Shown here: positions 2,853-51,831 of the stretch, piece after piece
How the letters are laid out: every line of letters begins with the position of its first letter
Position numbering within the stretch: position 1 is the first letter of the stretch
Assembly (NCBI GenBank): GCA_018899555.1
Contig: JAHIHZ010000011.1
Span: forward strand, 1-51,831
DNA: 51,831 nt
Reading direction: 5' to 3'
Source of the DNA: Patescibacteria group bacterium
GTDB taxonomy: Bacteria > Patescibacteriota > Minisyncoccia > Phycocordibacterales > 21-14-all-36-13
Notes under the pieces: generated by a model
Databases searched by the model: none
What the model was told of the DNA's origin: nothing
The model's input: only the letters and a program-made list of their open reading frames with translations
Position numbers and translations under genes: made by a program

Positions 2853-4136
2853 TTATTCTTTGAGTAATGCGTTTTCTGTATATGTATTAGCCGCGTCCCA
2901 CAACATCCAGCTTGTTAAACCGGAGTCATATGTCGCTTGAATTTGTTTTCTAACCATTTCTGCAGTATATGTGGCGCCCAAATCAAAATCCTGGAGCCAA
3001 GGACGAAGTTTTTTTACACTTTTACTTGTTTCCTTTGTAAATTTGGTTGTAGCCATTGTCGCTGTTGCCGTTGTTGTCGCAACCCCAATGTTATCAAATT
3101 CTACGGCTCTTTTAACTGCAAAATCCATTGAATATTTAACAACTCCATATGGATACGCGGCCGGATTAGAAAGGCCTAAAAAAGTTTTTGGATAGTGAGA
3201 TGGATAAACCATTGGCGCAATAAAATCAAAATATGGTAGGGCCCTTTCCAAAACTTGACCGATATTTAAATCATCTGAATTTGTTGTCACCATTCCAAAT
3301 AAATCCGCAGACAAGGTTACCCCTGTTGTTTTCTTGAGTTTTTTTGAAAGATACCTAAAAAAGTTTTCTATAACTATCGCTTTTCCATTTTCTTCATCTG
3401 CCAAAATTTTTTCTTCACTAAGCGGATAATATATATCATTCATATTTCCGTCCGAAGGAAATCTTATGTAATCAAAATTTAATTCATCAAAACCAATACG
3501 ATAGCTCTCCTGCCCTATTGCTATAACATAATCCCAAACTTCTTTTGAGCCGGCATCTAGCCAACTTATTCCTTTGTGATCTTTCCAGACAGAACCATCA
3601 CTCGCTCTTTTTACTGCAAGGTCAGGACGTTTTTTAACCAAATAAGAATCTTGAAAAACTGAGATTCTTCCTATTACATAAATATTTTTTTTGTGAAGTG
3701 TTTTTATAAATTCTTTTATATCAGGAATTCTATTTTCTGATGAACCAATATCTTTTAAAAAAGGATCCTCTACCTCAAAAGAGATTCTTCCAGTGTAATC
3801 TTTTATATCTATAATTATTGAATTTATTTCAGTTCTATCAATAATATCTATAACTTTTTTTCTAAGACCCGGGGTACCGGCAACCCAGCTTGTCATATAA
3901 ATTGCCTTGACCGGTTCAGGGGTTTTAATATGGGTAGCAACAAAAATGTCCTTTGCTACTTTTATTTCGTGGGTCCCTTTCTCTGTAAAAACATTCACAA
4001 TACTGTCTGAGTTATATTTTGTATGTATAAAAAGAGGAATAAAAAAATATATAACAATAAAAATCACTAATAAAAAAACCAGCAATATTACAAGTTGGTT
4101 TTTAAAAATAGACTTATTTATATTTTTAAGCGACAT
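2853..4136 (-). CDS. membrane-anchored putative glycoside hydrolase-like TIM-barrel protein (DUF4015-type)
   Basis: 427-aa ORF with an N-terminal TM helix. Motifs GFDELNFDYIRFPSDG and WLDAGSKEVWDY resemble the DUF4015/GHL family. Confidence 0.6.
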   Translation of the reverse strand: MSLKNINKSIFKNQLVILLVFLLVIFIVIYFFIPLFIHTKYNSDSIVNVFTEKGTHEIKVAKDIFVATHIKTPEPVKAIYMTSWVAGTPGLRKKVIDIIDRTEINSIIIDIKDYTGRISFEVEDPFLKDIGSSENRIPDIKEFIKTLHKKNIYVIGRISVFQDSYLVKKRPDLAVKRASDGSVWKDHKGISWLDAGSKEVWDYVIAIGQESYRIGFDELNFDYIRFPSDGNMNDIYYPLSEEKILADEENGKAIVIENFFRYLSKKLKKTTGVTLSADLFGMVTTNSDDLNIGQVLERALPYFDFIAPMVYPSHYPKTFLGLSNPAAYPYGVVKYSMDFAVKRAVEFDNIGVATTTATATMATTKFTKETSKSVKKLRPWLQDFDLGATYTAEMVRKQIQATYDSGLTSWMLWDAANTYTENALLKE

Positions 4137-4629: not shown

Positions 4630-5349
4630 TTAAACTTTGCTTTTTGAAACCACAACAACAAATTCTCCTTTTATTTTATCCTCGTTTTCGTTAAAATATT
4701 TTAAAATTTCTTCTGGGTTTCCAGATACAATTTGTTCATAAATTTTTGTTAATTCACGAGCTAAAACAATTTTACATTCATTGCCCAAATGCAGTTTTAA
4801 AGATTCTAATGTTTTTATAATTCTATGTGGCGATTCATAAAACACAACTGTTCTTTCCGATTCAGCGATTTCCTTAAATAAAGTTTCTCTGCCTTTTTTG
4901 TGCGGTAAAAATCCTAAAAATAAAAAATCTGATGCTGGTACGCCTGCACCAGAGAGAGCTGTTATGACAGCACTTGCTCCGGGAATAGGAATTATTTGTA
5001 TGCTGTCTCCAAATTTTTCTTTAATTTTAGAAACAAGAAACGAGCCTGGGTCTGAAATACATGGCGTTCCTGCATCAGAAATAAGCGCTAAAGTTTTTCC
5101 ACTTTCAATTTCCTTAAAAATCGTTTGTAATTTGTGATTTGTGTTTTGTGATTTGGAGCGTCCTGATTTTGGATTATCTGCGGGATAACTTAAAAGTGGT
5201 GTCTTTATCTCGTACTTGTCTAATAACCTTCTGCTGACTCGTGTATCTTCACACAAAATCAAATCAATCTCTTTTAAAATCCGCAGAGCGCGCAGGGTTA
5301 TATCCTCTAAATTTCCTATTGGTGTAGCTACTATATAAAATTTATTCAT
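4630..5349 (-). CDS. rsmI: 16S rRNA (cytidine1402-2'-O)-methyltransferase RsmI
   Basis: N-terminus FYIVATPIGNLEDITLRALRILKEIDLILCEDTR plus SDAGTPCISDPG are the tetrapyrrole-methylase-fold RsmI signature. Carries an in-frame repeat-derived insert at 5123-5156. Confidence 0.9.
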   Translation of the reverse strand: MNKFYIVATPIGNLEDITLRALRILKEIDLILCEDTRVSRRLLDKYEIKTPLLSYPADNPKSGRSKSQNTNHKLQTIFKEIESGKTLALISDAGTPCISDPGSFLVSKIKEKFGDSIQIIPIPGASAVITALSGAGVPASDFLFLGFLPHKKGRETLFKEIAESERTVVFYESPHRIIKTLESLKLHLGNECKIVLARELTKIYEQIVSGNPEEILKYFNENEDKIKGEFVVVVSKSKV

Positions 5350-6136: not shown

Positions 6137-6344
6137 AAAATAACAATAAAAATATATCAAAAAACTCGCTACAAGGCGAATTTTATAACAAATTATTATT
6201 TATTTAAAAACACAAAAACCACCATTGTGGCGGTTTTTAATTTTTTTGCAATTTGGAATTTGCAATTTGTGATTTGTGATTTGTGATTTGTGATTTGGAA
6301 TTTTCAAGTTTAAAAACTTTGTTTTTAAACTTGATATTACCCTC

Positions 6345-6362: not shown

Positions 6363-6625
6363 TGTCAGTTTCGCGCATCCGACAAAAAGCGAATGTATTT
6401 TTAAGATACAACATTATTATCTCTAACTCTGCTTTTAGCATAGTAGATCAACCTTTTCAATCTTGCTTCCTTGAGTGAAACAAGAAAATTTTAATTTAAA
6501 ATAATCCACGGCCACCTTCCGGTAGCCGTACCTTGTTACGACTTACTCCCTGTTACCGAATTTACCTTAGTTCGTCAAAGACGAGCTTCGGGTACCCCCG
6601 GCTCCCTTGAGTTGACGGGCGGTAT

Positions 6626-7583
6626 CGCATTACACAATGATTTCAATATATGTCAATAGTGTATGCACACCACTGGGCAAGCAGTTTTCCTGCACCCTAG
6701 CGGTTTCCATAGGTTTTCGCTTTTTTCCCTCTCTTCCTAATCTCATCACGAAGTCTAACAATTTTATTAAAACCCCTGTCTGTAAGATGTTCTTTTTTAG
6801 ACATCATTAAAACAATTTTTTTAAAAATTTTATAAACTTCCGCTTTTTTGGCTTGTAATGGATTTTTATCAAGAAAAGGGAAAAGTTTCGTTGTTAAATC
6901 TTTTAAATTATTTATCTTATATTTTGAATGAGGAAACCATCCATATCTATCATAAGACAGATCATAAATTCTTCCACACCCAATTGTTATAAGAATTCTC
7001 TCTAAAATTTTTTGATCATCGGCACGAAGTTCTATTTCAAATTCCGGTCGAATTTCAAATCTTCTTTTAAGAGTTTTATGTTTCCCTATGCTTATAGAAA
7101 AAGATCCCTCTCCGTCTATAAAACCAGAAACATAATTTGGATTTAATTTTTTCCTATGAATTTGTTCCTTCCCAATTGGTTTTTTTAACTTCTTGGTACT
7201 ATGAACTCTGCTGACTTCTTGCATAACATTTAAAAAAGATTGCTCTTTTATATACCTCGATGTTATCACACACCGAGGATTATGCAAGATCTCCTGTGGT
7301 AACTATATAGACCATTTGTTTTCATCTCGATATCACTACACGCAATATGTTTACTTTGACACAGTAGGCTTCTCCATATACTCGCAGGATGACCTACATA
7401 TTGCGCCACAGACTGATATTCAAGCTAAAAACTGCTAATTTCTCCCTTCACTGAATTTCCTCACGGAAAACAGCTGAGATTTCGCTTCAAAACACTGTGA
7501 CTTATTTTGGCCTGATTTCCAAAAACTTTTTTTAAAAAAGAAGTTGGGCACAGACTGGCTTATATAATCGCACAGCGACCCGA
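6626..7583 (-). mobile_element. 958-nt intron-like insertion in 16S between E. coli C1395 and A1396, carrying a LAGLIDADG gene; ribozyme class not assignable by eye
   Basis: Exon sequence GCCTTGTAC stops at 7584 and resumes as ATACCGCCCGTCAACTC at 6625. Joining the two restores the universal CCUUGUACA(C/U)ACCGCCCGUC. The insertion ends in G. The group I core motif seen in the other introns is absent. Confidence 0.7.
6697..7287 (-). CDS. LAGLIDADG homing endonuclease (single-motif type)
   Basis: Contains YVSGFIDGEGSFSISI. About 190 aa, located inside the rRNA insertion. Confidence 0.8.
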   Translation of the reverse strand: MHNPRCVITSRYIKEQSFLNVMQEVSRVHSTKKLKKPIGKEQIHRKKLNPNYVSGFIDGEGSFSISIGKHKTLKRRFEIRPEFEIELRADDQKILERILITIGCGRIYDLSYDRYGWFPHSKYKINNLKDLTTKLFPFLDKNPLQAKKAEVYKIFKKIVLMMSKKEHLTDRGFNKIVRLRDEIRKRGKKAKTYGNR

Positions 7584-7615
7584 GTACAAGGCTCGAGAAC
7601 GTATTCACCGCAGTA

Positions 7616-7651
<36 letters not shown>

Positions 7652-7804
7652 GGGTCGAGTTGCAGACCCCAATCCGAACTAGGACCGATTTTTAGGATTG
7701 GCTCAGGATTGCTCCGTCGCGACCTATTGTATCGGCCATTGTATTACGTGTGTAGCCCAGGGCATCAAAGGGACATGCTGACCTGGCGTCATCCTCTCCT
7801 TCCT

Positions 7805-7885
7805 CCCCTCCCTAAAAGAATTTTCAAACAAGAAGTTCGGCTTCTCAAGAGGAAGCCAAACTTCGAAAATTCACTTAGGGAGGGG
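7805..7885 (-). other. expanded 16S helix (about E. coli 1160-1175 region)
   Basis: CCCCTCCCTAAG ... CTTAGGGAGGGG encloses a second hairpin (GTTTGGCTTCCTCTTGAGAAGCCGAAC). E. coli has only about 15 nt at this position. Confidence 0.6.
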
Positions 7886-8235
7886 CAGTCTCGTCTGAAA
7901 TTTATAACAGACAACAAGGGTTGCGTTCGTTTCCCTACTTAAAGGAACAGCTCAAGCCACGAACTGACGACGGCCATGCATCACCTGCCTATCCGTTAAG
8001 ATTTTCTGTTTCTAGAAAAACATAAGATAGGTTTCAAGCCCTGGTGAGGTTCTTCGGTTAGTATCGAATTAAACCACATAATCCACCGCTTGTGCGAGCC
8101 CCCGTCTATTTCTTTGAGTTTTAACCTTGCGATCGTACTACCCAGGCGGTTCTCTTAATGCGTTAGCTTCGCCTCTCAGAGGGTCGATACTCCGAAAAGC
8201 TAGAGAACAACGTTTACGGCGTGGACTACAGGGGT

Positions 8236-8795
8236 CACTTTTGTTACGAAGTAACAAAAAAATTAAAAATGTAAAAATCAAAATGAAAAATTACAATTTA
8301 AAATTCAAAAGTTACCGGATACAACATTTCTGTGTATCTCTCTATGTCGCCATAGAGGTCGGACTATATCTTCACCCGGCACTTTCTGAAAGTGCTGGGG
8401 TTTGGCATGTAGTCTCTGAGGAGCCTTGCGTGCTATAAAATGCGGGCAACAGCACCTTTAACACACAAGTTTCCTGCTGATTGTCTGCATCGGTTTGAGA
8501 TTGTTACTATAATATATCAATAGTACTCGAACATTCGCAGAGTTTCCAGCATATAGCCAAATTACAATCTACTGTTGCCAGTAGAAGAGACACTGTTCGC
8601 ATTCTCTCACCTACTTGAGTGAGCATTTTCTTTTTTAAAACATATGCAGGAGATGAAATAAAAATCAAGGAGTCGCATAGGAAAATGAAACTGTTTGAGT
8701 CCTGCAAGGCAGGATGAGTTTTTCATTTTCCGTCATAAGACGATTATGATTTTTTTCATCGAAACATCGTTTTGAAAAAGAAGATGCGAACGTTT
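8236..8795 (-). mobile_element. group I intron in the 16S 790 loop (between U793 and A794), no ORF
   Basis: Splicing restores GGAUUAGAU|ACCCCUGUAGUCC. Core elements CCTCAGAGACTAC (P7 5' side) and GAAGATATAGTCCGAC (J8/7-P7', compare Tetrahymena AAGAUAUAGUCGGACC) are present at 8345-8425. The last intron nt is G and the last 5' exon nt is U. Confidence 0.8.
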
Positions 8796-9111
8796 ATCTA
8801 ATCCCTTTCGCTCCCCACGCTTTCGTGTTTCAGTGTCAGGAAATGTGCTAGTTTATTGCCTTCGCTTTTGGTGTTCCCCATAATATCAACGGATTTCACC
8901 CCTACACTATGAGTTCCATAAACCCCTCACACCCTCTAGTTGTACCGTTTCTTTTGCAGTTCTTCGGTTGAGCCGAATGTTTTAACAAAAGACTAATACA
9001 ACCACCTACACACCCTTTACGCCCAATGATTCCGGATAACGCTTGGGGCCTCTGTATTACCGCTCCTGCTGGCACAGAGTTAGGAGCCCCTTATTCATGA
9101 TCTGATGTCAA

Positions 9112-9230
9112 TCGCTCCGCGATTCCCACGCGGATAAACGCAGACAACAATGCGGATAGACGCGGATAAAAAATATCTGCGAAAATCTGCAAAAATATCT
9201 GCGAAAATCTGCGAAGAAATCGCAAAGCGA
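9112..9230 (-). repeat. V3-region expansion of 16S built from ATCTGCG/ATCCGCG-type repeats
   Basis: About 120 nt lie between ...GATTGAAGAAG and TTGACATCAGATCATG... The segment consists of tcgcagattttcgcagatatttttgcagattttcgcagat... and tatccgcgtctatccgc... Confidence 0.65.
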
Positions 9231-9466
9231 CTTCTTCAATCATAAAAGATCTTTACGTCCCTAAGGACTTCATCAATCACGCGATGTCGCTCCGTCAGGC
9301 TTTCGCCCATTGCGGAAGATTCTCGACTGCTGCCACCCGTAGGTGTATGGACCGTGTCGCAGTTCCACCGGTGGAGGTCAGGCTCTCACCTCTCCTAGAC
9401 GTCATAGCCTTGGTAAGCTTTTACCTTACCAACTAGCTGATATCCCGCAGGCCGATCCCAAAGCGC

Positions 9467-9518
9467 CCAGCACATATTTTGATTTTTGAACAATTTCAAA
9501 AATCAAAATATGTGCTGG
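9467..9518 (-). repeat. 52-nt near-perfect hairpin inside 16S V2
   Basis: CCAGCACATATTTTGATTTTTGAA-loop-TTCAAAAATCAAAATATGTGCTGG. Confidence 0.7.
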
Positions 9519-9532
9519 ACTTTACTCAACAC

Positions 9533-9825
9533 TTTTTTTATTTTACAAGAGATTCTTTAATTCGCTTTTTTATATATGTTCGAGCATTGCCATAATGTTT
9601 TAATCCTTTCTCCCGAGCTCTTGCATCTTCTTCGGATCTATATGATTCGCAATATACCAAAATCCACGGTATTCCAAATTTAGTTGATTGATTTATTCCA
9701 TCATTATGATGTTTAAGTCTCTCGGATAAATTTGTTGTAAATCCGAAATATAAATCTTTCGTTTTTTTGCTTTGAATCACATACACCGTATAAAGTTTCA
9801 TGAAGCTAATTATAAAATAAAAAAA
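9533..9825 (-). mobile_element. 293-nt insertion in a 16S V2 hairpin loop consisting almost only of a GIY-YIG ORF
   Basis: Bounded by an 8-bp inverted repeat, CTCAACAC (9525-9532) and GTGTTGAG (9826-9833). No group I core is visible. Confidence 0.65.
9538..9801 (-). CDS. GIY-YIG nuclease domain protein (87 aa)
   Basis: The N-terminus YTVYVIQSKKTKDLYFGFTTNLSERLKHHN is the GIY...YIG/R/E pattern of GIY-YIG domains. Confidence 0.8.
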   Translation of the reverse strand: MKLYTVYVIQSKKTKDLYFGFTTNLSERLKHHNDGINQSTKFGIPWILVYCESYRSEEDARAREKGLKHYGNARTYIKKRIKESLVK

Positions 9826-9925
9826 GTGTTGAGACTATCAGGTATTATCCCGCCTTTCGACGGATTATCCCTGACTTTGGGGGTCGTTCCTACGTGTTAC
9901 TACCTCGTTTGCCATGTTTTCTCGT

Positions 9926-10064
9926 CTACGGCGAGAACGCTGATGTTCGCAGATGGGGCTCGCTTGCGCTCGCCTTCGCAGATGTTCGCTGATATTTAAA
10001 AATTATATCTGCGTTAATCTGCGTTTTTTATCTGCGTTAATCTGCGGTCTTGTCGTAGACAAGA
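9926..10064 (-). repeat. 139-nt module expanding 16S helix 6 (V1); near-identical copy inside 23S (49169-49366)
   Basis: CTACGGCGAGAACGCTGATGTTCGCAGATGGGGCTCGCTTGCGCTCGCCTTCGCAGATGTTCGCTGATATTTAAAAATTATATCTGCGTTAATCTGCG... ...GGTCTTGTCGTAGACAAGA is shared with the 23S copy. Confidence 0.85.
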
Positions 10065-10137
10065 TACATTCGACTTGCATGCCTAATCCACATCGCCAGC
10101 GTTCATCCTGAGCTAGAATCAAACTCTAACTTAAAAA

Positions 10138-10155: not shown

Positions 10156-10596
10156 ATTGATAACTTGCCCCGTAAAATAAAAATTCTGAAAGAATTCTTA
10201 TTTTGCCAAAGGCAAAATATTTCACTGGGGTTTCCTTTTCTTTTATACTAAAAAATATTTTCAAAAAAATAGATAGGTTTCTATATTATTATTTCAAAGT
10301 TCGGTCATTCAGATAACTATGCTTCACTTTTAGTGAGTGAGAATGTAATTATATACAAAGGAAATTAAAAGTCAAAGTTTCAAAAAAGTTTACCCCGTAG
10401 CTTCGCGAAGCGAATGGTATGGGGCAAGAAAACAAAAAAACATCCCATTAGAAGTTCACCGAGAGTAAGTATTTTAATAGTGTGCGAAAGAGAATTCGCC
10501 TAACGGCTTTCTGTCTCAATCAAAAAGATTTCAGTATTAAACTTCTAACGGGACAAGCAAAAACAACCGAAAAAGAAGGGTTTTAACCCCACACTT

Positions 10597-11045: not shown

Positions 11046-11159
11046 TATTTTTTATCTCAGATTTTAATAGTCGCCTTATCTCTGCTATAGCAGAGGTAAG
11101 GCGACACTTTTATTTTTTCAATGGTTAACCCCGACATCGTCGGGGTTTTTATTTTTATG

Positions 11160-11282
11160 TCCGCGTTAAGTCCGCGTTAAGTCCGCGTTAAGTCCGCGTT
11201 AAGTCCGCGTATAGTCTGCATATTTAGTCCGCAATTTGTTATCTGCGTTCATCTGCGGTTTTTTATCTGCGTTTATCTGCGA
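11160..11282. repeat. tandem 11-mer AGTCCGCGTTA (about 4.5 copies) merging into ATCTGCG-type repeats
   Basis: gtccgcgttaagtccgcgttaagtccgcgttaagtccgcgttaagtccgcgta... then atctgcgttcatctgcggttttttatctgcgtttatctgcg. Confidence 0.9.
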
Positions 11283-11299
11283 ATTTTGCGAAAGCAAAA

Positions 11300-11878
11300 T
11301 TAAAGGTATTCAAACTCTTTAAAAACCGCTTCGTATAAATCTATTATCCTACTTGCCTCTCTGTGGGTCACAACAAAACTTGAACCGCCATGGGCTATGT
11401 CATTTCTAAATTTGTGCGCCTCCCATGCTTTCTCTATTGTATTGAAATCACTTTTTTCAACTGATTTTAGTTTTTCTCCTATATTTTCCTGTGTGTGCCC
11501 TATCTTTGTTAACATCTCTCCTAAAATTATGTCTGCTTCTAATATCGCAAGTTTCCAATCATTTTCATTTGTAGATTCAATGTGTCTCATTATTTGAGCC
11601 CACCTCTGATTCGTAGGATTACCTTGAGTATCAAGAAGCGCTTTCTCTGTAAGTTCATCTAATTTTATTTTTTCTTCTTTTCTTATTTGATTTATTCTGT
11701 TAACAACATAAACAATCCCAACAAGAAGCGCCAAAGAAAAAATCGCGGCAAATATTTTATAAATCTCCCAGAATTTCAAGAAATATTCGTAAGCAATTCT
11801 GTAATGCCCCACATCAAATAAAAGAAGATAGATTAATCTAAAAATATATTCAACATTTAAAAAATCAATTGATTGCAT
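11300..11878 (-). CDS. hypothetical membrane-anchored protein
   Basis: The ORF track runs to 11908, but the first 10 codons are CACAAAT-family repeat sequence, so the start is more likely MQSIDFLN at 11878. One TM helix, then a soluble helical domain ending ...NDIAHGGSSFVVTHREASRIIDLYEAVFKEF. Confidence 0.55.
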   Translation of the reverse strand: MQSIDFLNVEYIFRLIYLLLFDVGHYRIAYEYFLKFWEIYKIFAAIFSLALLVGIVYVVNRINQIRKEEKIKLDELTEKALLDTQGNPTNQRWAQIMRHIESTNENDWKLAILEADIILGEMLTKIGHTQENIGEKLKSVEKSDFNTIEKAWEAHKFRNDIAHGGSSFVVTHREASRIIDLYEAVFKEFEYL

Positions 11879-12020
11879 AAGCAATAAATTACAAATTACA
11901 AGCACCAAATCACAAATAAATCCTAAATAAAAAACCTAAAAACTACTTAGATATTTTAACATTTTATTAGAAATTAGAAACTGATAATTGAAAATTATTT
12001 TAATATTCTATATTAAAATT

Positions 12021-15447: not shown

Positions 15448-15777
15448 TCAAAGTATCTTTTTTACTTTCACATATCCATCTTTTGTGTTGGGCGCTTCTT
15501 TTAATAAGTCGCCACTAAATTCCCCCGCTTCTTGTGGGTTCTTATCTTCTCTCATTACATTCCTCAAATTTTTATCTGCGCCTGCCCCCACACCAAAAAT
15601 TTTGGTGTGGGGGCCTGCCCCGTAGGAAATTTGTTTTCCTTCGGGGTTAATCTGCGATACTTGTCCAACATAGTCAAGAATTGAATTTATGTCTTTGTTT
15701 AGACCACTAAATTCTTCCTCGGATATTTCAATCCTCGCGAGTTTTGAGAGTTTTTTTAATTCTTCGCTTGAAATCAT
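15448..15777 (-). CDS. gatC: Asp/Glu-tRNA(Asn/Gln) amidotransferase subunit C
   Basis: MISSEELKKLSKLARIEISEEEFSGLNKDINSILDYVGQVSQI is typical GatC. It carries a palindromic insert at 15574-15625. Confidence 0.85.
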   Translation of the reverse strand: MISSEELKKLSKLARIEISEEEFSGLNKDINSILDYVGQVSQINPEGKQISYGAGPHTKIFGVGAGADKNLRNVMREDKNPQEAGEFSGDLLKEAPNTKDGYVKVKKIL

Positions 15778-15862: not shown

Positions 15863-17926
<2,064 letters not shown>

Positions 17927-19338: not shown

Positions 19339-19452
19339 TTTCTAATTTCTAATGAAATATTAAATGTTAAATGTTAAATGTTAAATGTTAAATGTTAAAT
19401 GTTAAAAATCTGCGTTAATCTGCGGTTTCTATCTGCGCCTATCTGCGTTTTA

Positions 19453-20049
19453 CTAAAAATCTAAAATCCTTTGGCTCACCATGGTTTGAATATTAAAATT
19501 TGATTTTGTTTTTTCATTTTCTCCAGCGTGACCAGACAATACAATTAAAACTTTCGGTTGTTTATTATCACCTTCGCCTATGGTCTCTGACCCCTGAACA
19601 TAAAATGATAATGATTCTATTGTTATTTCTGGGGCAGTAATTGCAATAAAACTATTATTTACTCCACCACTTGTTGATTTTTCAATTTGAGTTCCATTTA
19701 ATCTATATACGACTTGGTCATTTGTAGAATCTGGATCGCCCCCCGTTGGTTCAAATGCAACATAGTTGCTTCCACCATTACAGTCTTTTGGTTCCCTTAT
19801 ATCACCAGAACCACAATGGTAATTTGTACCAACTCTCATTGTTCTTGTTATGTCCTCAATGGCAAAGCCAAGGTTGCTCATAACAAGTTGCAAAGATTGT
19901 GATTTTTTATTCGCACTAATCATACTTAGAAGCGAACCAACCCCTATAACCATAACCACAGAAAATAACGCAACAGCAACCATCATTTCTACCAAGGTGA
20001 ATCCTTTATTATAATTTTTACTACTGTTTTTTCCACTTTTTTGTTTCAT
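19453..20049 (-). CDS. pseudopilin / minor type IV pilin-like protein
   Basis: Prepilin-type N-terminus ...NKGFTLVEMMVAVALFSVVMVIG. Confidence 0.75.
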   Translation of the reverse strand: MKQKSGKNSSKNYNKGFTLVEMMVAVALFSVVMVIGVGSLLSMISANKKSQSLQLVMSNLGFAIEDITRTMRVGTNYHCGSGDIREPKDCNGGSNYVAFEPTGGDPDSTNDQVVYRLNGTQIEKSTSGGVNNSFIAITAPEITIESLSFYVQGSETIGEGDNKQPKVLIVLSGHAGENEKTKSNFNIQTMVSQRILDF

Positions 20050-20095
20050 TTTATTTCACTTTAATTATGGATGAAAAAGCTCTCCCAGAGCTTTT

Positions 20096-20827
20096 TCATT
20101 CTACAGATATTTGCCCAACAAATTTAACTAATACAGATTTTTCATCTCCGGTCGTTGAAGAAATATAAATACGCGCTGACTCATTCAAACCAAGAATAAT
20201 GTCTGACGATATTATCGCGTTGTGACTAGGTCTTTTAAAAAGAATATCCAATTTAGATCCACTATCACTACATGTTTCATTTCCCTTTAATGAAAATACG
20301 CAAAATTTACTTATAAAATTATTGCCCCTTATATTAATAATCTCAATTATCTCAGGTGTCCCGTCATATATATTATTTTTATTCGCATCGGCAAAAAAAA
20401 TGAAAGATTTATTATTTGCCGTATCAAAATGAACGCCATAGCCGACATTAAAATCTCCCGAACCGTATTCCCTTACCCCTGTTCCAAAAATTTGGGCCTG
20501 GCGTACAACAAGCGCAACTTCATAAGTTAAGTTGCTCAACCTAATAGTATTATTAAATTGGGCATCTCTTACCAGTATTATTGATGTTATTAGAGCAAAA
20601 ATTCCGGTTGTAACTATAAGTTCAACTATTGTAAACCCACACACTAATTTTCTTTTTGTTTTACCTGTATATTTTTTATAAAATATCTTGTTCAATTTAT
20701 TAAATATTATATTAAAAAACAAAATGCTAAATTTATTTGAAACCAGATTTAGTGTGTGGGTAAAGCCCGTTAGAAATTTTTTTCTATTGGTTGTATTCTT
20801 CTGGAAATCTGTTTTCATTTTTCTCAT
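20096..20827 (-). CDS. pseudopilin / minor type IV pilin-like protein with long leader
   Basis: CGFTIVELIVTTGIFALITSI sits about 70 aa from the ORF start, so the true start is uncertain. Confidence 0.6.
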   Translation of the reverse strand: MRKMKTDFQKNTTNRKKFLTGFTHTLNLVSNKFSILFFNIIFNKLNKIFYKKYTGKTKRKLVCGFTIVELIVTTGIFALITSIILVRDAQFNNTIRLSNLTYEVALVVRQAQIFGTGVREYGSGDFNVGYGVHFDTANNKSFIFFADANKNNIYDGTPEIIEIINIRGNNFISKFCVFSLKGNETCSDSGSKLDILFKRPSHNAIISSDIILGLNESARIYISSTTGDEKSVLVKFVGQISVE

Positions 20828-21180
20828 TTTTTGAAATATTAAACTTTCTTCTTTTTGTTGATTTTTAATGGGGCAGGCCCTCTTTTGGTTTTGCTTGCCC
20901 CACCTGCCTACCGCAGGCAGGTAAAATTTTTATCCCGTGAAATTTGGAAACTATTTCACTGGGGTGGATTTAAATTAACTGGGATATATTGTGGATTCAA
21001 ATTAACTGAAATATATTATGGATTCAAATGGTCTCCCAGACCATTTGAATTCTCCCAGAGCATAACACAAAAAAATAATTATGGATTTAAAAGCTCAAAA
21101 TATTATGGATTCAAAATTAACTAAAACATTGTGGATTCAAATGGTCCCCCAGACCATTTGAATTCCCGGAGGTTTTGAAT

Positions 21181-22690: not shown

Positions 22691-23145
22691 AATTTTATAC
22701 AGAAAGTTACTAAATATTTAGTATGCAGAAAACTCTGCATGGTCTTGAAATAGCTTTTATAAACTATATTCAAGTATTTACATCAATAAACATAAGAGTA
22801 ATTCGACCTTATCTCTTATATATACATTCGTATGTATTTACATTATAAACTAATAACACAAAACAAAAAAGGAACTTGTGGATAACCCCGTTAGAAGTCG
22901 CGGGCGTAGTACGCCCTACTTCTAACGGGGCAGGCCCCTAAACAAAATCGCGGGCGTAATACATCCTCCTGAAAATTCTTGTTTGAAATGCAACTTATAT
23001 ATAAGATTAAAATATGAGAAAAACATTTAAATATTTGGACTTTCATATAAATTGTCAAGTCTAAAATTAAAAAACCGCTCTGTTGAGCGATCTTTATACT
23101 CATCTGCGTACATCTGCGGTTGTTATCTGCGTACATCTGCGGTTA

Positions 23146-27877: not shown

Positions 27878-28114
27878 ATTTAACTGTGTTTACAAATGTT
27901 TACCCTGTTAAATCCCGCGTAGCGGAAAATTTGCTTCGACAAATTTATTTAACAGGGCGAGCAAAAATATTACCTGCCCCGTGAAATTCAAAGAATATTT
28001 CACTGGGGTGGATTGAAACGCTCAAAAAAATTATGGAATAGAAAGCTCAAAACATGAATCAATTCTGACACTTTACTTAAAAAGTTCATTTAGAACTTTT
28101 TAAGTTAGAGCTTT

Positions 28115-41089: not shown

Positions 41090-41164
41090 TTTATGCTCTA
41101 CGACGAATTTAATTCATATAAAAACTTTACCGGAATAAAATTTATGAGAAAACAATCAAAAAGT

Positions 41165-41420: not shown

Positions 41421-41488
41421 TTTTAATGAGGAGTTGTAGGTCAATATCGTTAAAACCAATGTTTTTTCTTACATTTTAACGGTATTGA

Positions 41489-41516: not shown

Positions 41517-41522
41517 AGAGAT

Positions 41523-42410: not shown

Positions 42411-42493
42411 TATGAATAAATCGGAAACACGAGCAGGATATAATTTCCAGCGGTTGAACCGCTGAAAATCAACCACTGAAAATTACTGAAATT

Positions 42494-43321: not shown

Positions 43322-43924
43322 GACACGGGACAAATACCCTGTTTCTGTGTCTCATTTGTCTCTTTGTCTCATTTACTAAAACACTACTCTAACCTACATA
43401 CATAAATTTGCAACACCAAAATATGTAAAATACCTTTATGACACTTGGAGTTGTTTCCCAGCGGTTTAACCGCTGTAAATGTTTAAATAAAAGAAAAAAC
43501 CCGCATATGGTGCGAGTTGAACTTCCCCCACATTTGTGGGGTGTGTTTAGTTATAAATATAAATTAAGTAAAAAGCAAAAGTATTTTTCACCTAGCAGAA
43601 TAAAAATCCATAAGAAATTTACCCTGTTAAATTCCGCCGAAGGCGGACCTGCATAGCAGGATTTAATAGGGTTGTAGTTTAATAGCTCCCAACAGGAAGT
43701 ATTACTTGATTAAATTAGTACTTCTCGGCTGAACGCATTACTGCGCTTACACCTAAAGCCTATCAACCTGATCATCTCTCAGGAATCTTAAATGATTTCT
43801 AATCTTGGAGTTGGTTTCCCGCTTAGATGCTTTCAGCGGTTATCCATTCCCGACATAGCTACCCTGCGATGCTCTTGGCAGAACAGCAGGTACACCAGAG
43901 GTCAGTTCACTTCGGTCCTCTCGT

Positions 43925-46209: not shown

Positions 46210-46293
46210 ACCCAGCTCACGTGACTTTTTAATTGGCGAACAGCCAAACCCTTGGGAGCTTCTACACCCCCAGGATAAGTCGAGCCGACATCG

Positions 46294-46644
46294 CAATATC
46301 ATTTTTCTCCTGTTACCAGGAGGATCGGACTATATCTTCTTCCTTCTACAACAATCAAATTGTAGTGAGGAGTTGGCGTATTAATATTTCGTTTGTGAAA
46401 TACTCTCTGCTTTCGCATCAGTCTCTACGGGGTCAATCCAGCACCTAATTTTTATTAATTAATTAATAAAAATTAGGTGCTGGACGACTTCCCACGGTAT
46501 TGTCCATAATAAAAATTATATCATGGAGTTCACCGTTATAAGCCAATATTTTAATCAAAACATATTCTCCTACAAATATGTTTTTTGATTCCAGGCTATA
46601 TGATTTCTCATATCGCACCCCGATTTAAATGTAAATTTACTTTA
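46294..46644 (-). mobile_element. group I intron at L2500, ORF-less (351 nt)
   Basis: Splicing restores GGCACCU|CGAUGUCGGCUC. P1 is GCACCU with GGGUGC. Core GAAGATATAGTCCGATCC and CCCCGTAGAGACTG at 46325-46430. Confidence 0.85.
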
Positions 46645-46687
46645 AGGTGCCGAACTCCGCCGTCGCTCTGAACGCTTAGGCGGAACC

Positions 46688-46720
<33 letters not shown>

Positions 46721-46884
46721 AATCTCCGGCCACATCTAATGTGTGCCGTCGGTTCACTATGTTCTGCTTTCGCATCTGCTTGACATGTCCGTCTTGCAGT
46801 TAAGCCAGCTTATGCCATTACACTATCGGCACGGTTTCCATTCGCGCCTAGCTGACCTTATAAACTCCTCCGTTACTTTTTAGG

Positions 46885-47289
46885 CATCATTGTTACCAAA
46901 TCGCAGATTCTCGCGGATTTTAAAACGCGGATTATGCAGATTGGGGCAAATATTTCTATGTGCCTCTCATTGTCGCCAATGAGATCGGACTATATCTTCT
47001 AAATCGTTTTTAAACAATTTAGTTCAGCGTGTAGTCTCTGGGGCTCTCTACTATTAGTAGATTGCCTGCTAGTTGTCCGCACCAAACAAATTTTTACTTT
47101 TTTTCAAGCAAGTATTGTTGGATACACCGGATTTTCTAGCATATAGCTGAATCCTATTTTATAAATTTTAATTAAATTTATAAAATACCCCCTCATTTAT
47201 TTATTTTGAAGTGGATTAAACTTCTGGAGGCGCCATAGTTTCAAGATACAGATTCTTACAGATTAAAATACTGATTTTCTGCACCCTGA
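46885..47289 (-). mobile_element. group I intron at about L2262 (just 3' of the P-loop), ORF-less
   Basis: Splicing restores GGGGCGCUAUCCU|CCUAAAAAGUAACGGAGGAG. Core at 46985-47045. The intron ends ...AAUGAUG. Confidence 0.75.
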
Positions 47290-47618
47290 AGGATAGCGCC
47301 CCACTAAAACTGTCCACCACGCAATGTCTCTCATCGTTTTTGCCGCTGAGGTTAGAATATACATCACAAAAGAATGGTATTTCACTGACGACTCCATCTG
47401 TTCCGAAAAACAAACTTCAAAGTCTCCCATCTATGCTACGCAGATGAAACATATATTCAATGCGAAGTTACAGTAAAGCTCCCGGGGTCTTTTCGTCCCG
47501 TTGCAGGTAACCGGCATCTTCACCGGTACTGTATTTTCACCGAGCTGTTCCCCGAGACAGTCCCCCAGTCGTTACGCCATTCGTGCACGTGTGAACTTAC
47601 CACACAAGGAATTACGCT

Positions 47619-48082
47619 CAACTTTGTTACTTTGTAAGAAACGCAACTTATGTTAATTACACATATTCGCGCAAATACAAGGTAAGAACATTTCTGTCTC
47701 ACTCTTTGTGTCGCCACAAAGTTCGGACTATATTTTCTAAATTATTTTTGTGTTTAATTTAGTTTGACTTTTAGTCTCTGAGGATGTTGCGAACTTTTTT
47801 TCTTTTAAAAAGTTCTCAACTTTCCTGCTGATTTTCCGCATCACCTTAAAGATTATTACTGTTTAAAAAAATTAAACGAGTACTCAAGGATACATTGCGG
47901 GTTTCCCAGCATATGGTCAAAATTTAAAGACATTTCACTTAATGTGAAATAGGCAACAACCTTTTTATTACCAAATTATTTATAATCGTCCCAGTCCTTC
48001 TACACTAGAAGTTAGAAACCAGAAACTAGAAAAATAAATTTTCCAGAAATCCAGCGTCTTAGTAATCAGCCTCCAGTGCAAA
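47619..48082 (-). mobile_element. group I intron at L1931, ORF-less
   Basis: Splicing restores CCUAAGGU|AGCGUAAUUCC. Core at 47720-47785. The intron ends ...AAAGUUG. Confidence 0.8.
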
Positions 48083-48096
48083 ACCTTAGGACGATT

Positions 48097-48844
48097 CATA
48101 AACGTTATCACTGCTCTCAAGCAGCTCCTCATGGTCGCCCATGAGATCGGACTATCTCTTCCAAATCCGATTTCTCGGATTAGGTCTAGCGTATAGTCTC
48201 TGAGGATTTTCTGATAAAGAGTTTCTATAATCTTCTATATTATATTTTCTCTTTCTTCCTCTCCCTTCATTCAATTTTTCTCTTAATTTTACTATTTTAG
48301 ACATCCCTTCGTTGTTTAAATGTTCTTTTTTATAAACTATTTCTGTAATTTGTGAAAAAATTGAGAAATTTTTTTTTTACTTGAAGAAAGAAAAGAATAT
48401 TTTTTGAAGAAAGGTATTATCCTCTCTTGAATTGCGTTTGGGTTTGAAATTACATAGTACCAAACTCCATCTTTTCGTTCTTGCAATCTGCCACATTTTA
48501 AATATTGTTTCATTAAAGCAAGAATCGTTTTGTCGCGTTGAGCGACATTTAAAGTCAACACTATTTGCCAACCGAGAGAATGATCTTCGCGTTTTCTTAA
48601 AGAAACATTGAAGCTTCCCTCTCCGTCAACAAACCCTGAAATATAGTTTCCTATATTTTGGGGTATTAATTTAAGCCACGAATAATCTTTATTCATAAGT
48701 TTTATTCGTTACTTTGTCAGAATCTTTCCTGCGGATTGTCTGCACCGTTGCATTGTTACTATCCTTTCGACAAGAATGAGTAGCAAACGGATACACCAGA
48801 GTTTCCCGCATATAGCTAGATTTTTTAACTACAATCGTCACCTT
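48097..48844 (-). mobile_element. group I intron at L1917 (inside helix 69 loop) with disrupted LAGLIDADG gene
   Basis: P1 is AACUAU (exon) with GUAGUU (intron). Splicing restores GGCGAUAACUAU|AAUCGUCC, a helix 69 of the same length as in E. coli with compensatory stem changes. Core at 48145-48215. Confidence 0.85.
48152..48696 (-). pseudogene. LAGLIDADG homing endonuclease gene interrupted by a frameshift in an A10 run
   Basis: The 119-aa ORF (48337-48696) contains YISGFVDGEGSFNV. After the T10 run at 48369-48378 the homologous C-terminus (..KKEHLNNEGMSKIVKLREKLNEGRGRKRKY..) continues in another frame. Compare the 16S enzyme ..KKEHLTDRGFNKIVRLRDEIRKRGKK... Confidence 0.7.
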
Positions 48845-48889
48845 ATAGTTATCGCCGACATTCACCAGGGCTTACACAATCCAGCCATT

Positions 48890-49040
48890 TGCATCACGCT
48901 ATGCGCGATGCTCAAAATTAAATATAAAATATCAAAGATAAAAAATATTGAAGTCAAAATTTTCTTTGAAAATTTTGACACCTAAATTTTACATTTTGAT
49001 TTTTGAATTTTGAATTTCATCACACGCAGTGTGATGCAAA
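48890..49040 (-). other. 23S domain IV helix expansion (three-way junction with AT-rich arm)
   Basis: TCATTTGCATCAC...GTGATGCAAATGG encloses two GC hairpins and an AT-rich module. E. coli has a short hairpin at this position. Confidence 0.6.
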
Positions 49041-49168
49041 TGACCCCCCGTGTTTAACCTTCTGGCATTGGTCAGGCGTCACCCCCTATACATCCTCTTA
49101 CGAGTTCGCAGGGAGCTGTGTTTTTGGTAAACAGTCGCCAGGGGTACTTTCGCTGCGTCCTTTCTCGC

Positions 49169-49366
49169 CTACGGCGAGAACGCTGATGTTCGCAGATGGG
49201 GCTCGCTTGCGCTCGCCTTCGCAAATGTTCGCTGATATTTAAAAATTATATCTGCGTTAATCTGCGTTTTTATCTGCGTTAACCCTGTTAAATAATTTTG
49301 CCTTCGGCAAAATTCCTGCAAGGCAGGATTTAACGGGGTGAATCTGCGGTCTTGTCGTAGACAAGA
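49169..49366 (-). repeat. copy of the 16S helix-6 module inside 23S, with a nested 58-nt ACCCTGTTAAAT-type module
   Basis: Collinear with 9926-10064 except for 1 substitution, 1 T indel and the nested insert at 49282-49339. Confidence 0.85.
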
Positions 49367-49924
49367 AGGGAAAGCCTTATTCCAAAGTTACGGCTGCTTT
49401 TTTGCCGAGTTCCTTGGGGAACACTCACTCATTCGCCTTAGTCTTCTCGACCTGATCACCTGTGTCGGTTTGCGGTACGGTTTTCATTTATTTAATCTTA
49501 GAGGTTTTTCTTGGAAGCTTGCTTTATTTGATTCCCTTTGGCGAACCTCCGGTTCTCCACTTCGCTTGAAATTAACATTAAAGTTAGGTGCCCGGATTTG
49601 CCTAAACACCTTTCTCACGAAGCAGACGCAAATCCAATAATGCGCCAAATATACTAAACTTCGTCACCCCATCGAAATAAATGAAAGTCACGGAATATTA
49701 ACCGTGTGTCCATCGGCTTCGACTTTCGTCATAACCTTAGGACCGACTAACCCTTGGATGATTCTCATTGCCAAGGAAACCTTGATCTTTCGGCGTCCCA
49801 CCTTTTTAGTGGGATTGTGGTTACTCGTGCCAACATTATCTCTTCCGTACGCTCCACCATGGGTCACCCCTTTGGCTTCACAGCAGAACGGAATGCTCTC
49901 CTACCGCTCATGCTACGCACGAGC

Positions 49925-50030
49925 AAGTCGAAAGTAAAAAGTCAAAAGTTGAAAGCAAGAACAAAAAGATGAACATAGCTTTTGACTTTATAGACTTTAT
50001 AGACTTTTAACTCGCTTGTGCGAAGCACAA
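49925..50030 (-). other. expansion at 23S helix 45 (classical IVS site)
   Basis: About 100 nt of AT-rich sequence plus the CTTGTGCGAAGCACAAG hairpin lie between ACCGAAACTGAGGG and GGTAGGAGAGCATTCC. Confidence 0.6.
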
Positions 50031-50181
50031 GCCCTCAGTTTCGGTACTACACTTAGCCCCGATTATTTATGGCGCAAAATCTCTTAACGAGTGAGCTGTT
50101 ACGCTTTCTTTAAAGGATGGCTGCTTCTAAGCCAACCTCCTCGCTGTCGGAGAAATTCCACCTCCTTATTAGCACTTAGTG

Positions 50182-50236
50182 TCTCCGATTTCCTTTAGGA
50201 AATCGAGAGTCCGCGATTCTGTAAACAGAATCGGGA
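50182..50236 (-). other. two-hairpin insertion in 23S domain II
   Basis: CGATTTCCTTTAGGAAATCG and CGATTCTGTAAACAGAATCG interrupt ...AAGGTCCCTAAATTTTC / CACTAAGTGC... Confidence 0.55.
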
Positions 50237-50321
50237 AAATTTAGGGACCTTAACTTGAGATCTGGGCTGTTTCCCTTTTGACCGACGGAGCTTAGCCCCC
50301 GTAGTCTGACTGTTTAGAATT

Positions 50322-50458
50322 CTCTCGCCTCCGGCGAGAACGCTGATGTTCGCAGATTTACCCTGTTAAATTCTGTGAAGCAGAAAATTTGCTTTAGCAA
50401 ATTTATTTAACAGGGTGAATCCGCATTTTTATAATCCGCGATCTTGTCGGAGACAAGA
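50322..50458 (-). repeat. third, partial copy of the CGGCGAGAACGCTGATGTTCGCAGAT module inside 23S
   Basis: CTCTCGCCTCCGGCGAGAACGCTGATGTTCGCAGAT, then an ACCCTGTTAAAT...TTTAACAGGGT module, then GAATCCGC...TCTTGTCGGAGACAAGA. Confidence 0.75.
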
Positions 50459-50780
50459 CGTTCTGGTATTCGGAGTTTGATTGGTCTAGTGAGATTGCTC
50501 CCTATCCAGACCATCCAGTGCTCTACCCCCAGAAGGTAATCTAAACGCTAGCCCTAAAGCTATTTCGGAGAGAACCAGCTATTACCAGGTTCGATTAGCT
50601 TTTCACTCCTACCCACAACTCATCCGATGGTTTTGCACGGCCAACCGGTTCGGGCCTCCCTCTATCTTTCGACAGAGTTCACCCTGGTCATAGGTAGCTC
50701 ACCTGGCTTCGGGTCTTACATATACTACACCTGCAATAAAGCAGAACGCGCTTTTGACACTCGGTTTCCCTTAGACTCCA

Positions 50781-50855
50781 CCCAGCCGTAGTTTTCGAAA
50801 ACTTATGAGGTAGTAATAAAAACAAATCAAAACTACTTCAAAAACTACGGCTGGG
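50781..50855 (-). other. expansion at 23S helix 25 (classical IVS site)
   Basis: CCCAGCCGTAGTTTT...AAAACTACGGCTGGG is a long hairpin in the position of helix 25. Confidence 0.6.
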
Positions 50856-50911
50856 CTTAGTCAAGCAATATATATAAACTCGTTGGCTCATTCTTCAATA
50901 GGCACACCGTC

Positions 50912-51171
50912 GCCGTTGCATCTCGCTAGGCAATATGCAACGGAAAATCACAAACCACAAGCACCAAAACACAAATTTATCCCGCCTGCCTGCAGTAGGC
51001 AGGTAGCTTCACGAAGTGAATGGTATGGGACAAAACATAATTACCAAAATTCAAAAATCAAAACTCAAAACTTTTTTATTTGAAATTTGGAAATTAGAAT
51101 TTAGAATTTATTTGTAATTTGGGATTTGTTTATTGGAATTTCCGTGCATCTCACACAGTGAGATGCAACGG
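50912..51171 (-). repeat. 260-nt composite expansion in 23S domain I/II (AC-rich arm, GC module, GU-rich arm)
   Basis: Contains AATCACAAACCACAAGCACCAAAACACAAA, the TTATCCCGCCTGCCTGCAGTAGGCAGG...GGTATGGGACAAA module (also intergenic at 32520-32577), and TTTGTAATTTGGGATTTGTTTATTGG. Confidence 0.75.
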
Positions 51172-51222
51172 CTCCGATTCCTTGTAGACATATGGTTTCA
51201 GGTCTATTTCACTCCCCTCTCC

Positions 51223-51265
<43 letters not shown>

Positions 51266-51506
51266 ATCTCTAAGAGTATTTAGCCTTACCAGTTAGTTCT
51301 GGCAGATTCTCTCAAGCCATTCGTGTCTTGAGATACTCAGGAACATCAACAAAGAAGTATATGAAATTTCGTTTAAGGGGCTATCACTCTCTAGGGCCAA
51401 GCTTTCCAGCTTGTTCAACTATTTCACATATTTATAACTTCTCTTGCATAAATGCAACATTAATGTCCTACAACACCAGCCATACCTCACTAAGTTCGGT
51501 CTGTCT

Positions 51507-51668
51507 GGAAATCACAAATCACAAGCACCAAAACACAAACAAAACACAATTACCAAAATTCAAAAACCAAAACCTTTTTGTTTGAGATTTGAAAATTAGA
51601 ATTTAGAATTTATTTGTAATTTGGAATTTGTTTATTGGAATTTCCGTGCTGAACACAGTGAGGCACGG
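51507..51668 (-). repeat. 160-nt long imperfect hairpin expansion in 23S domain I, paralogous to 50912-51171
   Basis: An AAATCACAAATCACAAGCACCAAAACACAAAC... arm faces a ...TTTGTAATTTGGAATTTGTTTATTGGAATTT arm. It closes with CCGTGCTGAACACAGTGAGGCACGG. Confidence 0.75.
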
Positions 51669-51831
51669 CCGGTTTGGGCTTCTCCCGTTTCGCTCGCCGC
51701 TACTAAGGGAATCGCGAGCTTTGCTTTTTGCCCGCTGTAAAGAAAAGACAATATTTATTTCTTTATTTCTAAAGAAAAAATAATATTAATTCCTTTACCT
51801 ATTGCCTGTTCGCTTTTTAAAAATAAAAAGC

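Follow-up and report, generated by a model that had tools for sequence, protein, structure and literature searches.

A gene-less cassette with a predicted rod fold, shared by helices of 16S and 23S rRNA in a groundwater Patescibacteria genome

The cassette and its predicted fold

The stretch of DNA analysed here (the window) is the 51,831-nt contig JAHIHZ010000011.1 of an ultrasmall groundwater bacterium belonging to the Patescibacteria, or Candidate Phyla Radiation (CPR). It is AT-rich (34% G+C) and carries type IV pilus genes, gatCA, ligA, and minus-strand ribosomal RNA (rRNA) genes that are full of introns and inserts. The 515 region of the 16S gene (CAGCAGGAGCGGUAAUAC) places the window in the Patescibacteria, on the Parcubacteria side, and so does GatA, which is identical to three NCBI proteins (MBU3968653.1 and two more) that bear the name 'Patescibacteria group bacterium'. 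Among the rRNA inserts is a discrete cassette of about 145 nt that contains no open reading frame (ORF) and is present in three copies, A, B and C, all of them in rRNA genes and on the rRNA (minus) strand (Table 1).

How similar are the three copies, and where do they end? The original prediction held that one module lies in both the 16S and the 23S gene, and the module is real: positions 9918-10028 and 49161-49271 are 98% identical over 111 nt, and the 26-mer ATCTGCGAACATCAGCGTTCTCGCCG occurs exactly three times in the window (at 9929, 49172, and 50332, always on the minus strand), with no match in 100 shuffles even when three mismatches were allowed. A three-way alignment reveals a sharply bounded common element with unrelated host flanks, and its boundaries are the same at five different rRNA sites in two genomes. 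Read in rRNA sense, each copy starts with UCUUGUCUNCGACAAGA and finishes with UCUCGCCGNAGRCGAGA. The predicted start at 9926 clips six nucleotides from copy A, and these hold one more T/C difference; between 9926 and 10064 the differences that had been listed between copies A and B (one G/A substitution, one T indel, and one nested module) are correct. Copy B amounts to copy A with a nested module of about 58 nt (56-58 nt) added. The third copy, described earlier as partial, exists and has both ends complete; only its middle has been replaced. It retains the same 3' 37 nt, while its interior consists of degenerate CGCGGAT units and a nested module of its own.

The copies occupy different kinds of position in their host RNAs. 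At the site of copy A, 128 nt fail to align to the Rfam 16S model at model positions ~79-83, and at the site of copy B, 189 nt fail to align to the 23S model at about model position 1762. Copy C forms a lateral branch and not a helix tip; it is set in the 3' strand, close to the H38 base and upstream of H39, which is intact, a placement that is the author's own reading of the model alignment and of the mapping to E. coli. The identical peptides that the original prediction had called spurious are indeed by-products of ORF finding on the antisense strand, with the common tail ...TARTLMFADGARLRSPSQMFADI. A protein-level search with a 52-aa spurious ORF derived from the module gave no candidates, and those of 75 and 79 aa are absent from the protein collection.

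Table 1. Coordinates of the cassette copies, their host genes, and related repeats and inserts in the window
Feature	Coordinates	Strand	Remarks
16S rRNA gene	6495..10134	-	many inserts, one group I intron, one group-II-like intron
16S group-II-like intron, D1-D4 match	7165-7254	-
LAGLIDADG ORF of the 16S group-II-like intron	6697-7287	-
23S rRNA gene	46211..51831	-	5' end beyond window edge; 3' end unmapped
23S group I introns	46966-47196, 47704-47976		LAGLIDADG ORFs close by
Copy A, 145 nt	9920..10064	-	replaces tip of 16S helix 6 (h6)
Copy A, 5' end	10048-10064	-	UCUUGUCUACGACAAGA
Copy A, 3' end	9920-9936	-	UCUCGCCGUAGACGAGA
Copy B, 204 nt	49163..49366	-	tip of 23S helix 63 (H63), E. coli ~1711-1741
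Copy C, 136 nt	50323..50458	-	23S, ~E. coli 930; ends complete, interior remodelled
Nested two-hairpin module in copy B	49282..49339	-	stem ACCCYGUUAAAU/AUUUAACAGGGU closes two inner hairpins
Nested two-hairpin module in copy C	50361..50415	+	orientation opposite to the module in copy B
Two-hairpin module, intergenic	27903..27957	.
Two-hairpin module, intergenic	43622..43671	.
Insert in 16S h17 region	9129..9217	-	4x CGCAGAU then 4x AUCYGCG; different basal stem
4x CGCAGAT array, intergenic	11240..11297	-	right after the ORF 11300-11908 stop codon
4x CGCAGAT array, in frame in ligA (ORF 15863-17923)	17167..17233	-	encodes a 16-residue peptide
4x CGCAGAT array, intergenic	19403..19449	-	just past the stop codon of ORF 19453-20049
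4x CGCAGAT array, intergenic	23101..23144	-	just downstream of pilC-like 23146-24351, then a terminator-like hairpin
Second rod family, copy at the E. coli 272 site	51480-51660	-
Second rod family, copy at H25	50945-51170	-	~55-nt nested insert

Each copy, taken with its flanks, is predicted to fold as one long rod in which the outer arms pair with each other. The minimum free energies of copies A, B, and C are -63.5, -87.3, and -60.7 kcal/mol (z = -7.5, -8.2, and -8.0), and none of 200 shuffled sequences folds as well. The 17-nt ends are each palindromic and are imperfect inverted repeats of one another (TCTTGTCTNCGACAAGA, TCTCGCCGNAGRCGAGA). When the copies of two lineages are aligned, all 21 pairs of the basal stem of about 21 bp are formed in 8 of 8 distinct copies, and the stem prolongs the host helix. 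The interior consists of four CGCAGAU units (at spacings of 10, 13, and 10) opposite AUCUGCG or AUCAGCG units, with an AU-rich loop between them.

Do the palindromic ends form separate hairpins, as the original prediction supposed when it described copies bounded by small hairpins, or does one end pair with the other? The two palindromes covary at their centres, forming A-U in four copies and C-G in the other four (among them copy C, with C-G in place of A-U), and there is one further change from G.U to A-U in the 16S copy. Such covariation would not be expected of separate end hairpins, which together with the folding argues that the ends pair with one another; the local-hairpin model was discarded on these grounds. 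A second candidate pattern, in which the stems would be complete on the antisense strand only (G.U there, A.C in rRNA sense), was dropped when copy C proved to have the reverse: its CGCGGAU units pair with AUCUGCG in rRNA sense. Fold energies are alike on both strands (z = -7.5 vs -7.0).

The cassette matches no group I or group II intron model; real introns were detected elsewhere in the same rRNA genes. Neither the cassette nor the nested module brought any Rfam family to its gathering score, and the sole hit was a sub-threshold miRNA model (E = 0.17).

The cassette in relatives and the history of its copies

Public sequence was scanned with an exact 20-mer from the 3' end of the cassette, in 185,579 species genomes and in a metagenome collection. 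In the species genomes, the cassette-bearing matches were the 16S and 23S contigs of a single metagenome-assembled genome (MAG), H52-bin030_1 (JBBTPZ01, here R), a Patescibacteria bacterium from Hainich groundwater; in the metagenomes, they were Hainich groundwater rRNA contigs and one contig from JGI. The same 20-mer had zero matches in a scan of viral contigs. Matches in L002-L004 (56-64% GC), which have no BLAST match to the window, were treated as chance, as was a match in L009 (50% GC), whose sequence was read and carries no cassette.

R is a distant relative of the window. In aligned blocks, their coding DNA is ~74-79% identical (GatA protein 84%, LigA protein 79%), and their rRNA, inserts apart, shows identities of mostly 91-98% per block. 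Five rRNA sites of R carry the cassette: 16S h6, H63, the site at ~E. coli 930 (the H38 site; L001:6126-6288), H45 (E. coli 1165-1181), and just after E. coli 272. At H45 and at the E. coli 272 site, where R has the cassette, the window has unrelated rods. The cassettes themselves are 95-97% identical between the two genomes, which could reflect selection, homogenisation, or transfer.

Presence of the cassette is sporadic among relatives. The original prediction had suggested looking in relatives for empty sites, and h6 was found empty in two of them, GCA_007376805.1 (L013) and a JGI contig (L015), in both of which the gene order ligA-gatC-gatA-x-x-16S is conserved. Their plain helix 6 reads GUGGGU-UUAG-ACCCAC, whereas the window has AUGUA-[cassette]-AAACAU at this position. 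A route to the 23S genes of further relatives through the gene for EF-G was rejected: contig L025 stops before the 23S gene, L027 does not lie beside one, and L026 is a distant 23S gene in which a GIY-YIG insert lies close to the E. coli 272 site.

A closer relative is represented by the JGI contig L010, whose 16S gene is ~99% identical to that of the window outside the inserts and whose h6 cassette is identical. The same contig has wholly different inserts (L010:1773-2078 and 3670-3840) at window positions 9465-9816 and 7820-7877, and an extra LAGLIDADG-containing intron near the 3' end of the 16S gene. The turnover of rRNA inserts is very fast compared with the stable h6 cassette.

Could one or more of the copies be artefacts of assembly, arising from collapse or mis-joining at the repeat? 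The repeat does break assemblies, as seen in the R 23S contig JBBTPZ010000020.1, which ends inside the H63 cassette (L001:7216-7279). However, the rRNA sequence on either side of every copy is correct and collinear, and identical junctions are given by other assemblies. Copy A is identical in the independent assemblies L010 (a JGI contig from another dataset), L021, and L022, and copy B in L018 and L019; all three copies recur base for base in an 89.8-kb ENA contig (assembled by MEGAHIT and containing both rRNA genes) and in NCBI JAHIHC01; and the copies of R recur in three to four separate assemblies. An artefact is therefore exceedingly improbable.

When the same cassette is found at several helices, is it a recent arrival or an old resident? 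Copies A and B share the terminal loop AUAUAAUUUUUAAAUAU and the internal segment GCGCAAGCGAGCCCC, in contrast to AUAUAUUAUUUAAUAU and GCGAAAGCGAGCCC in R, and a mini-hairpin, UUUAUCCCGCCAAGGCGGGAU, is found in four of the five R copies and in no window copy. The h6 copy in the 16S gene of R is 100% identical over 163 nt to the H38 copy in its 23S gene, and the H63 copy of R differs from these two in the compensatory centre pair only. Some signal also follows the site: the centre pair is C-G at the H38 site and A-U at H63 in both genomes.

These genome-specific characters indicate that the copies within a genome have been homogenised, a form of concerted evolution that may have worked by gene conversion or re-copying. 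Because the h6, H63, and H38 sites are also occupied in the divergent R, the near-identity of copies within one genome points to ongoing homogenisation. The simplest reading of the sequences would be old occupancy of the sites combined with repeated non-reciprocal copying of the interior between them, and copying between sites best explains the near-identity of the 16S and 23S copies. Under this proposal, cassettes at several sites would be at least as old as the split between two lineages with ~80% identical GatA and LigA, and non-reciprocal copying, deduced from the pattern of shared differences, would keep the copies of one genome alike. The original prediction of recent transposition or gene conversion is supported, with two refinements. 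The element is discrete, and gene conversion or repeated re-copying fits its genome-specific characters; the three sites shared with R speak against a recent first insertion, and classical transposition is poorly supported.

Mini-repeats, nested modules, and other inserts

The building blocks of the cassette are not confined to it. The word CGCAGAT is found 38 times in the window, compared with ~3 occurrences expected from base composition, and four-unit arrays lie in another rRNA insert, between genes, and within ligA (Table 1). At the loop that holds the ligA array, E. coli LigA (2owo) shows a gap of 10 residues, and in R this loop is occupied by another insert, a double hairpin (L006, ~790-860). 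In the gatC gene of the window (ORF 15448-15777, minus strand), two perfect hairpins stand between two CGCAGAT units, in frame, at ~15570-15660 (QINPEGKQISYGAGPHTKIFGVGAGADKN). The same gatC loop in L013 has an uninterrupted in-frame array of four CGCAGAT units (QITQINADKEPQMNADK, L013:5951-6002), and in L015 the loop is short.

The nested modules have a common layout of TTTACCCTGTTAAAT, hairpin, hairpin, ATTTAACAGGGTAAA. Those of copies B and C lie in opposite orientations, with an alignment score of 31 when one is reverse-complemented and 18 in the same orientation. In L013, a two-hairpin module of ~60 nt (TTTACCCTGTTAAAT...ATTTAACAGGGCA) lies in frame in gatA (L013:6868-6927) and adds 15 residues relative to the GatA of the window. 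Judged by their sequences, the nested units appear to behave as mobile repeats at the DNA level, being found in both orientations, between genes, and in frame in coding regions. The CGCAGAT part of the cassette would serve as a landing pad for smaller hairpin modules of this kind.

A two-hairpin element of the same design as the nested module lies at 10168-10229 (CCCCAGUGAAAU...AUUUYACRGGG), ~35-95 nt upstream of the 5' end of the 16S gene. It is present at this position in three lineages (also L010:1356-1417 and L015:13351-13407) and may be part of the rRNA leader.

The window has a second family of rods (GGAAAUUCCAAUAAACAAAU...AUUUGUGAUUUCC), unrelated to the cassette, with one copy at the E. 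coli 272 site and one at H25; nearly every aligned column is identical over the shared stretches. The existence of this second family implies that rods are commonly shared between helices in this genome. The CAAAT/ATTTG-type units of the second family are also seen between genes, at 5124-5157, 6252-6313, 11886-11942, and 32489-32545.

Other repeats and features of the window are as follows. At 11144-11219, five or six 11-nt units (GCGGACUUAAC, minus sense) stand in tandem beside a CGCAGAT array and a terminator-like hairpin; an (AACAUUU)n array is found at 19340-19400, and short arrays that repeat every ~10-11 nt take up the 3' regions of several genes. A word resembling a DnaA box (TTATGGAT or TTGTGGAT) accompanied by a perfect terminator-like hairpin is dispersed between the pilus genes (348-403, 20059-21165, and 30272-30327). 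Several direct repeats of 156-300 nt, 90-95% identical and ~4.8-5 kb apart, link 36204-38228 with 41158-43020, in a region encoding a nuclease (SNase), an Eco57I/TaqI-type methylase, an AAA ATPase, and Fic; it looks like a duplicated defence or mobile island adjoining the 23S gene. A 119-aa intron endonuclease gave no record in an exact look-up. The true 3' end of the 16S gene is near 6495, and the end at 7537 given by Rfam is an artefact of the group-II-like intron, which interrupts the gene near model position 1390. At its 3' terminus the gene has GGAUUAUUUU, compared with GGAUCACCUCCUUA in E. coli, and the canonical anti-Shine-Dalgarno sequence is not seen there.

The nature of the cassette and its known counterparts

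What kind of element is the cassette? Intervening sequences (IVSs) of bacterial rRNA are known at H9, H25, and H45; they are stem-loops with complementary termini, and are removed by RNase III without re-ligation (PMC4990558). CPR bacteria retain rnc (PMC12641178). Like IVSs, the cassette turns the loop of a variable surface helix into an extended stem-loop (at the tips of h6 and H63, and at H45 in R), and its complementary termini form the 21-bp stem. The two ends would pair in the rRNA transcript, with the basal stem continuing the host helix and the interior completing the rod, and the rod would then act as an IVS-type extension, either excised by RNase III to leave a fragmented rRNA or tolerated as an expansion segment. 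Because the basal stem is invariant across sites and in both lineages while the interior is freely remodelled, the stem is likely to be the selected part. From this analysis the rod is most likely an IVS-type extension, excised or retained; more fully, the cassette is probably a discrete, gene-less rod that resides at insertion-tolerant rRNA positions, is homogenised within the genome, and behaves as an IVS-like element in the RNA.

Some observations weigh against this interpretation. The covariation rests on one double change, and the cassettes come from two lineages together with near-identical strains. Gene conversion without flanking homology cannot explain the first arrival of the cassette at a new helix. 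The exact 20-mer scans could have missed diverged copies or copies outside rRNA. Furthermore, a neighbour-joining tree of two proteins is star-like and joins R with L013, the relative with an empty h6, a pattern in which loss, independent or repeated gain, and transfer between lineages cannot be told apart.

It has been shown that E. coli rRNA tolerates engineered insertions at the h6 tip, 23S 266-275, H25, H45, and H63, and that eukaryotic expansion segments lie at the same positions (PMC2441807). The cassette sites, and for the second rod family H25, match these functional insertion sites, as well as the eukaryotic es1, ES5L, ES15L, and ES27L. Is the rod then a functional expansion segment, kept in mature ribosomes and binding a protein or RNA, for example through its CGCAGAU/AUCUGCG units? 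The choice of sites and the constant orientation are consistent with this idea, as is the high identity of the cassettes between two genomes with much more divergent coding DNA, at a time when other rRNA inserts differ completely even between near-identical strains. However, the interior is dispensable, since most of it is missing from copy C and nested modules break into it at various points; at H45 and the E. coli 272 site one genome has the cassette where the other has unrelated rods; two relatives have a plain h6; and the conservation could equally stem from homogenisation. A retained functional segment is therefore possible but somewhat unlikely. The cassette could alternatively be an ordinary non-autonomous DNA transposon, either a miniature transposable element with inverted repeats (MITE) or an element of the IS200/IS605 type, with a transposase elsewhere and a recent jump into rRNA hairpins. 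Its sharp ends, its 17-nt imperfect terminal inverted repeats that are themselves hairpins, its presence at a minimum of five different sites, the DNA-level mobility apparent in the smaller nested modules, and the different inserts carried by the same rRNA site in sister genomes would all fit a transposon. Yet MITEs would also be expected to show target-site duplications and dispersed copies in two orientations. Comparison of the flanks at the five sites revealed neither target-site duplications nor a common target motif (the left flanks are UGUA, CCCU, AACG/AAAA, AAAU, and AAUA). The fixed tetra- or pentanucleotide target and the Y1 or RAYT (repetitive extragenic palindrome (REP)-associated tyrosine transposase) protein that mark IS200/IS605-derived and REP-RAYT elements were likewise not found in the window: there is no transposase or RAYT among its 40 ORFs of at least 100 aa (no Y1_Tnp match). 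A profile search of the gathered sequence found full-length matches at rRNA sites only and the array part alone elsewhere, and no full-length copy outside rRNA or in antisense was found in the exact 20-mer scans, a MAG of unstated completeness, and ~54 kb of the genome itself. As three of the sites are common to a distant relative, those three insertions are also old, and a recently active transposon is unlikely.

The restriction of the cassette to rRNA raises two further possibilities. It might be a new kind of mobile IVS confined to rRNA, with the basal stem as an excision signal and a transposase-free route of spread tied to rRNA (RNA-mediated or coupled to processing), a proposal that is rather doubtful. 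Alternatively, an excised or precursor hairpin might enter another rRNA helix at the RNA level and become fixed by reverse transcription or recombination. The rRNA-only range, the single orientation at five sites, the lack of target-site duplications, and the basal stem, which is more conserved than any other part and is a candidate signal for processing, are all in keeping with such a route, but no candidate for a reverse transcriptase or ligase was seen, there is no ribozyme signature (no Rfam family at gathering score), the orientation bias at five sites amounts to only about p = 0.06, and selection for tolerated sites together with gene conversion would give the same picture. Spread of the RNA itself is thus very unlikely. 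As a still bolder extension of the doubtful mobile-IVS proposal, the excised rod, whose AUCUGCG units are complementary to the CGCAGAU arrays at the 3' ends and in the interiors of several mRNAs, could act on these in trans.

As a picture of how rRNA grows, a self-contained rod can be copied among helices where eukaryotes grew expansion segments, and its copies are then homogenised and invaded by smaller hairpins. At least some of the short ORF-less inserts in CPR rRNA form sequence families that extend across 16S and 23S and are made of the genome's own mini-repeats. A small genome also tolerates tiny mobile hairpins in frame in ligA, gatC, and gatA. For metagenomics, repeats of this kind break rRNA contigs and can mis-join them, lengthen amplicons, and yield spurious ORFs that may be miscalled as genes.

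How does the cassette compare with known rRNA insertions? It resembles bacterial rRNA IVSs, which have been found in 23S H25 and H45 of Salmonella, Leptospira, Coxiella, and Campylobacter, in H9 of alphaproteobacteria, and in the 16S of a few genera, in being an ORF-less or small insert at a helix tip. It also shares with them the complementary termini that form a long stem, the sporadic distribution among relatives, and the use of H45 (PMC4990558). Unlike IVSs, the same cassette occupies up to five helices of 16S and 23S and is homogenised among them; furthermore, some of the positions that it uses (H63, the base of H38, and E. coli ~272) fall outside the classical IVS sites. No description of one IVS in both rRNAs or in several helices was found by keyword searches of the literature, none of which was aimed directly at this point.

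The same class of object is seen, within the same phylum-level group, in the short rRNA inserts of CPR bacteria (Tsurumaki et al. 2024, PMC11270868), which are <200 bp, match no intron model, contain no ORF, and lie at the tops or bases of stem-loops. That survey, the only systematic one of rRNA inserts in CPR bacteria, leaves the short ORF-less inserts uncharacterised and presumes them to be IVSs, and its main text does not contain the words 'repeat', 'hairpin', or 'palindrom' (PMC11270868). The sharing of sequence between helices and between 16S and 23S, the construction from genome-wide mini-repeats, and the concerted evolution go beyond it.

Hairpin repeats that enter rRNA genes are also known from organelles. 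Repetitive hairpin elements (RHEs), double-hairpin elements, and palindromic repeats of sponge and Volvox mtDNA lie in intergenic DNA, in the variable parts of both rns and rnl, and now and then inside protein genes, and are often double or triple hairpins, as here (PMC2800124, PMC2670323). By contrast, the host of the present elements is a free bacterial genome, and only the sub-modules, not the composite cassette, extend beyond rRNA. Rickettsia palindromic elements (RPEs) are palindromic repeats that lie in frame in essential genes (PMC10969869), a situation also encountered here in ligA and gatC, and in gatA and gatC of a relative. RPEs form defined families of ~100-150 bp, whereas the in-frame units here measure 40-60 nt and the rRNA cassette is not found in coding DNA. 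It is the sub-modules, and not the whole cassette, that resemble mini-repeats of the RPE or RHE type.

A further parallel is the P6b of the group I intron in Nostoc tRNA-Leu (PMC4476775), a peripheral stem-loop of short repeats that has been replaced wholesale between lineages and in which side stem-loops insert at a recurrent position, as in the cassette. P6b belongs to a single intron site, while the cassette is present at several sites in two rRNAs. In the light of these comparisons, the cassette extends the known insertions in bacterial rRNA without requiring a new category: it combines a rod of the IVS or expansion type with hairpin mini-repeats, and the new part is that one cassette is common to several helices of both rRNAs and evolves there in concert.

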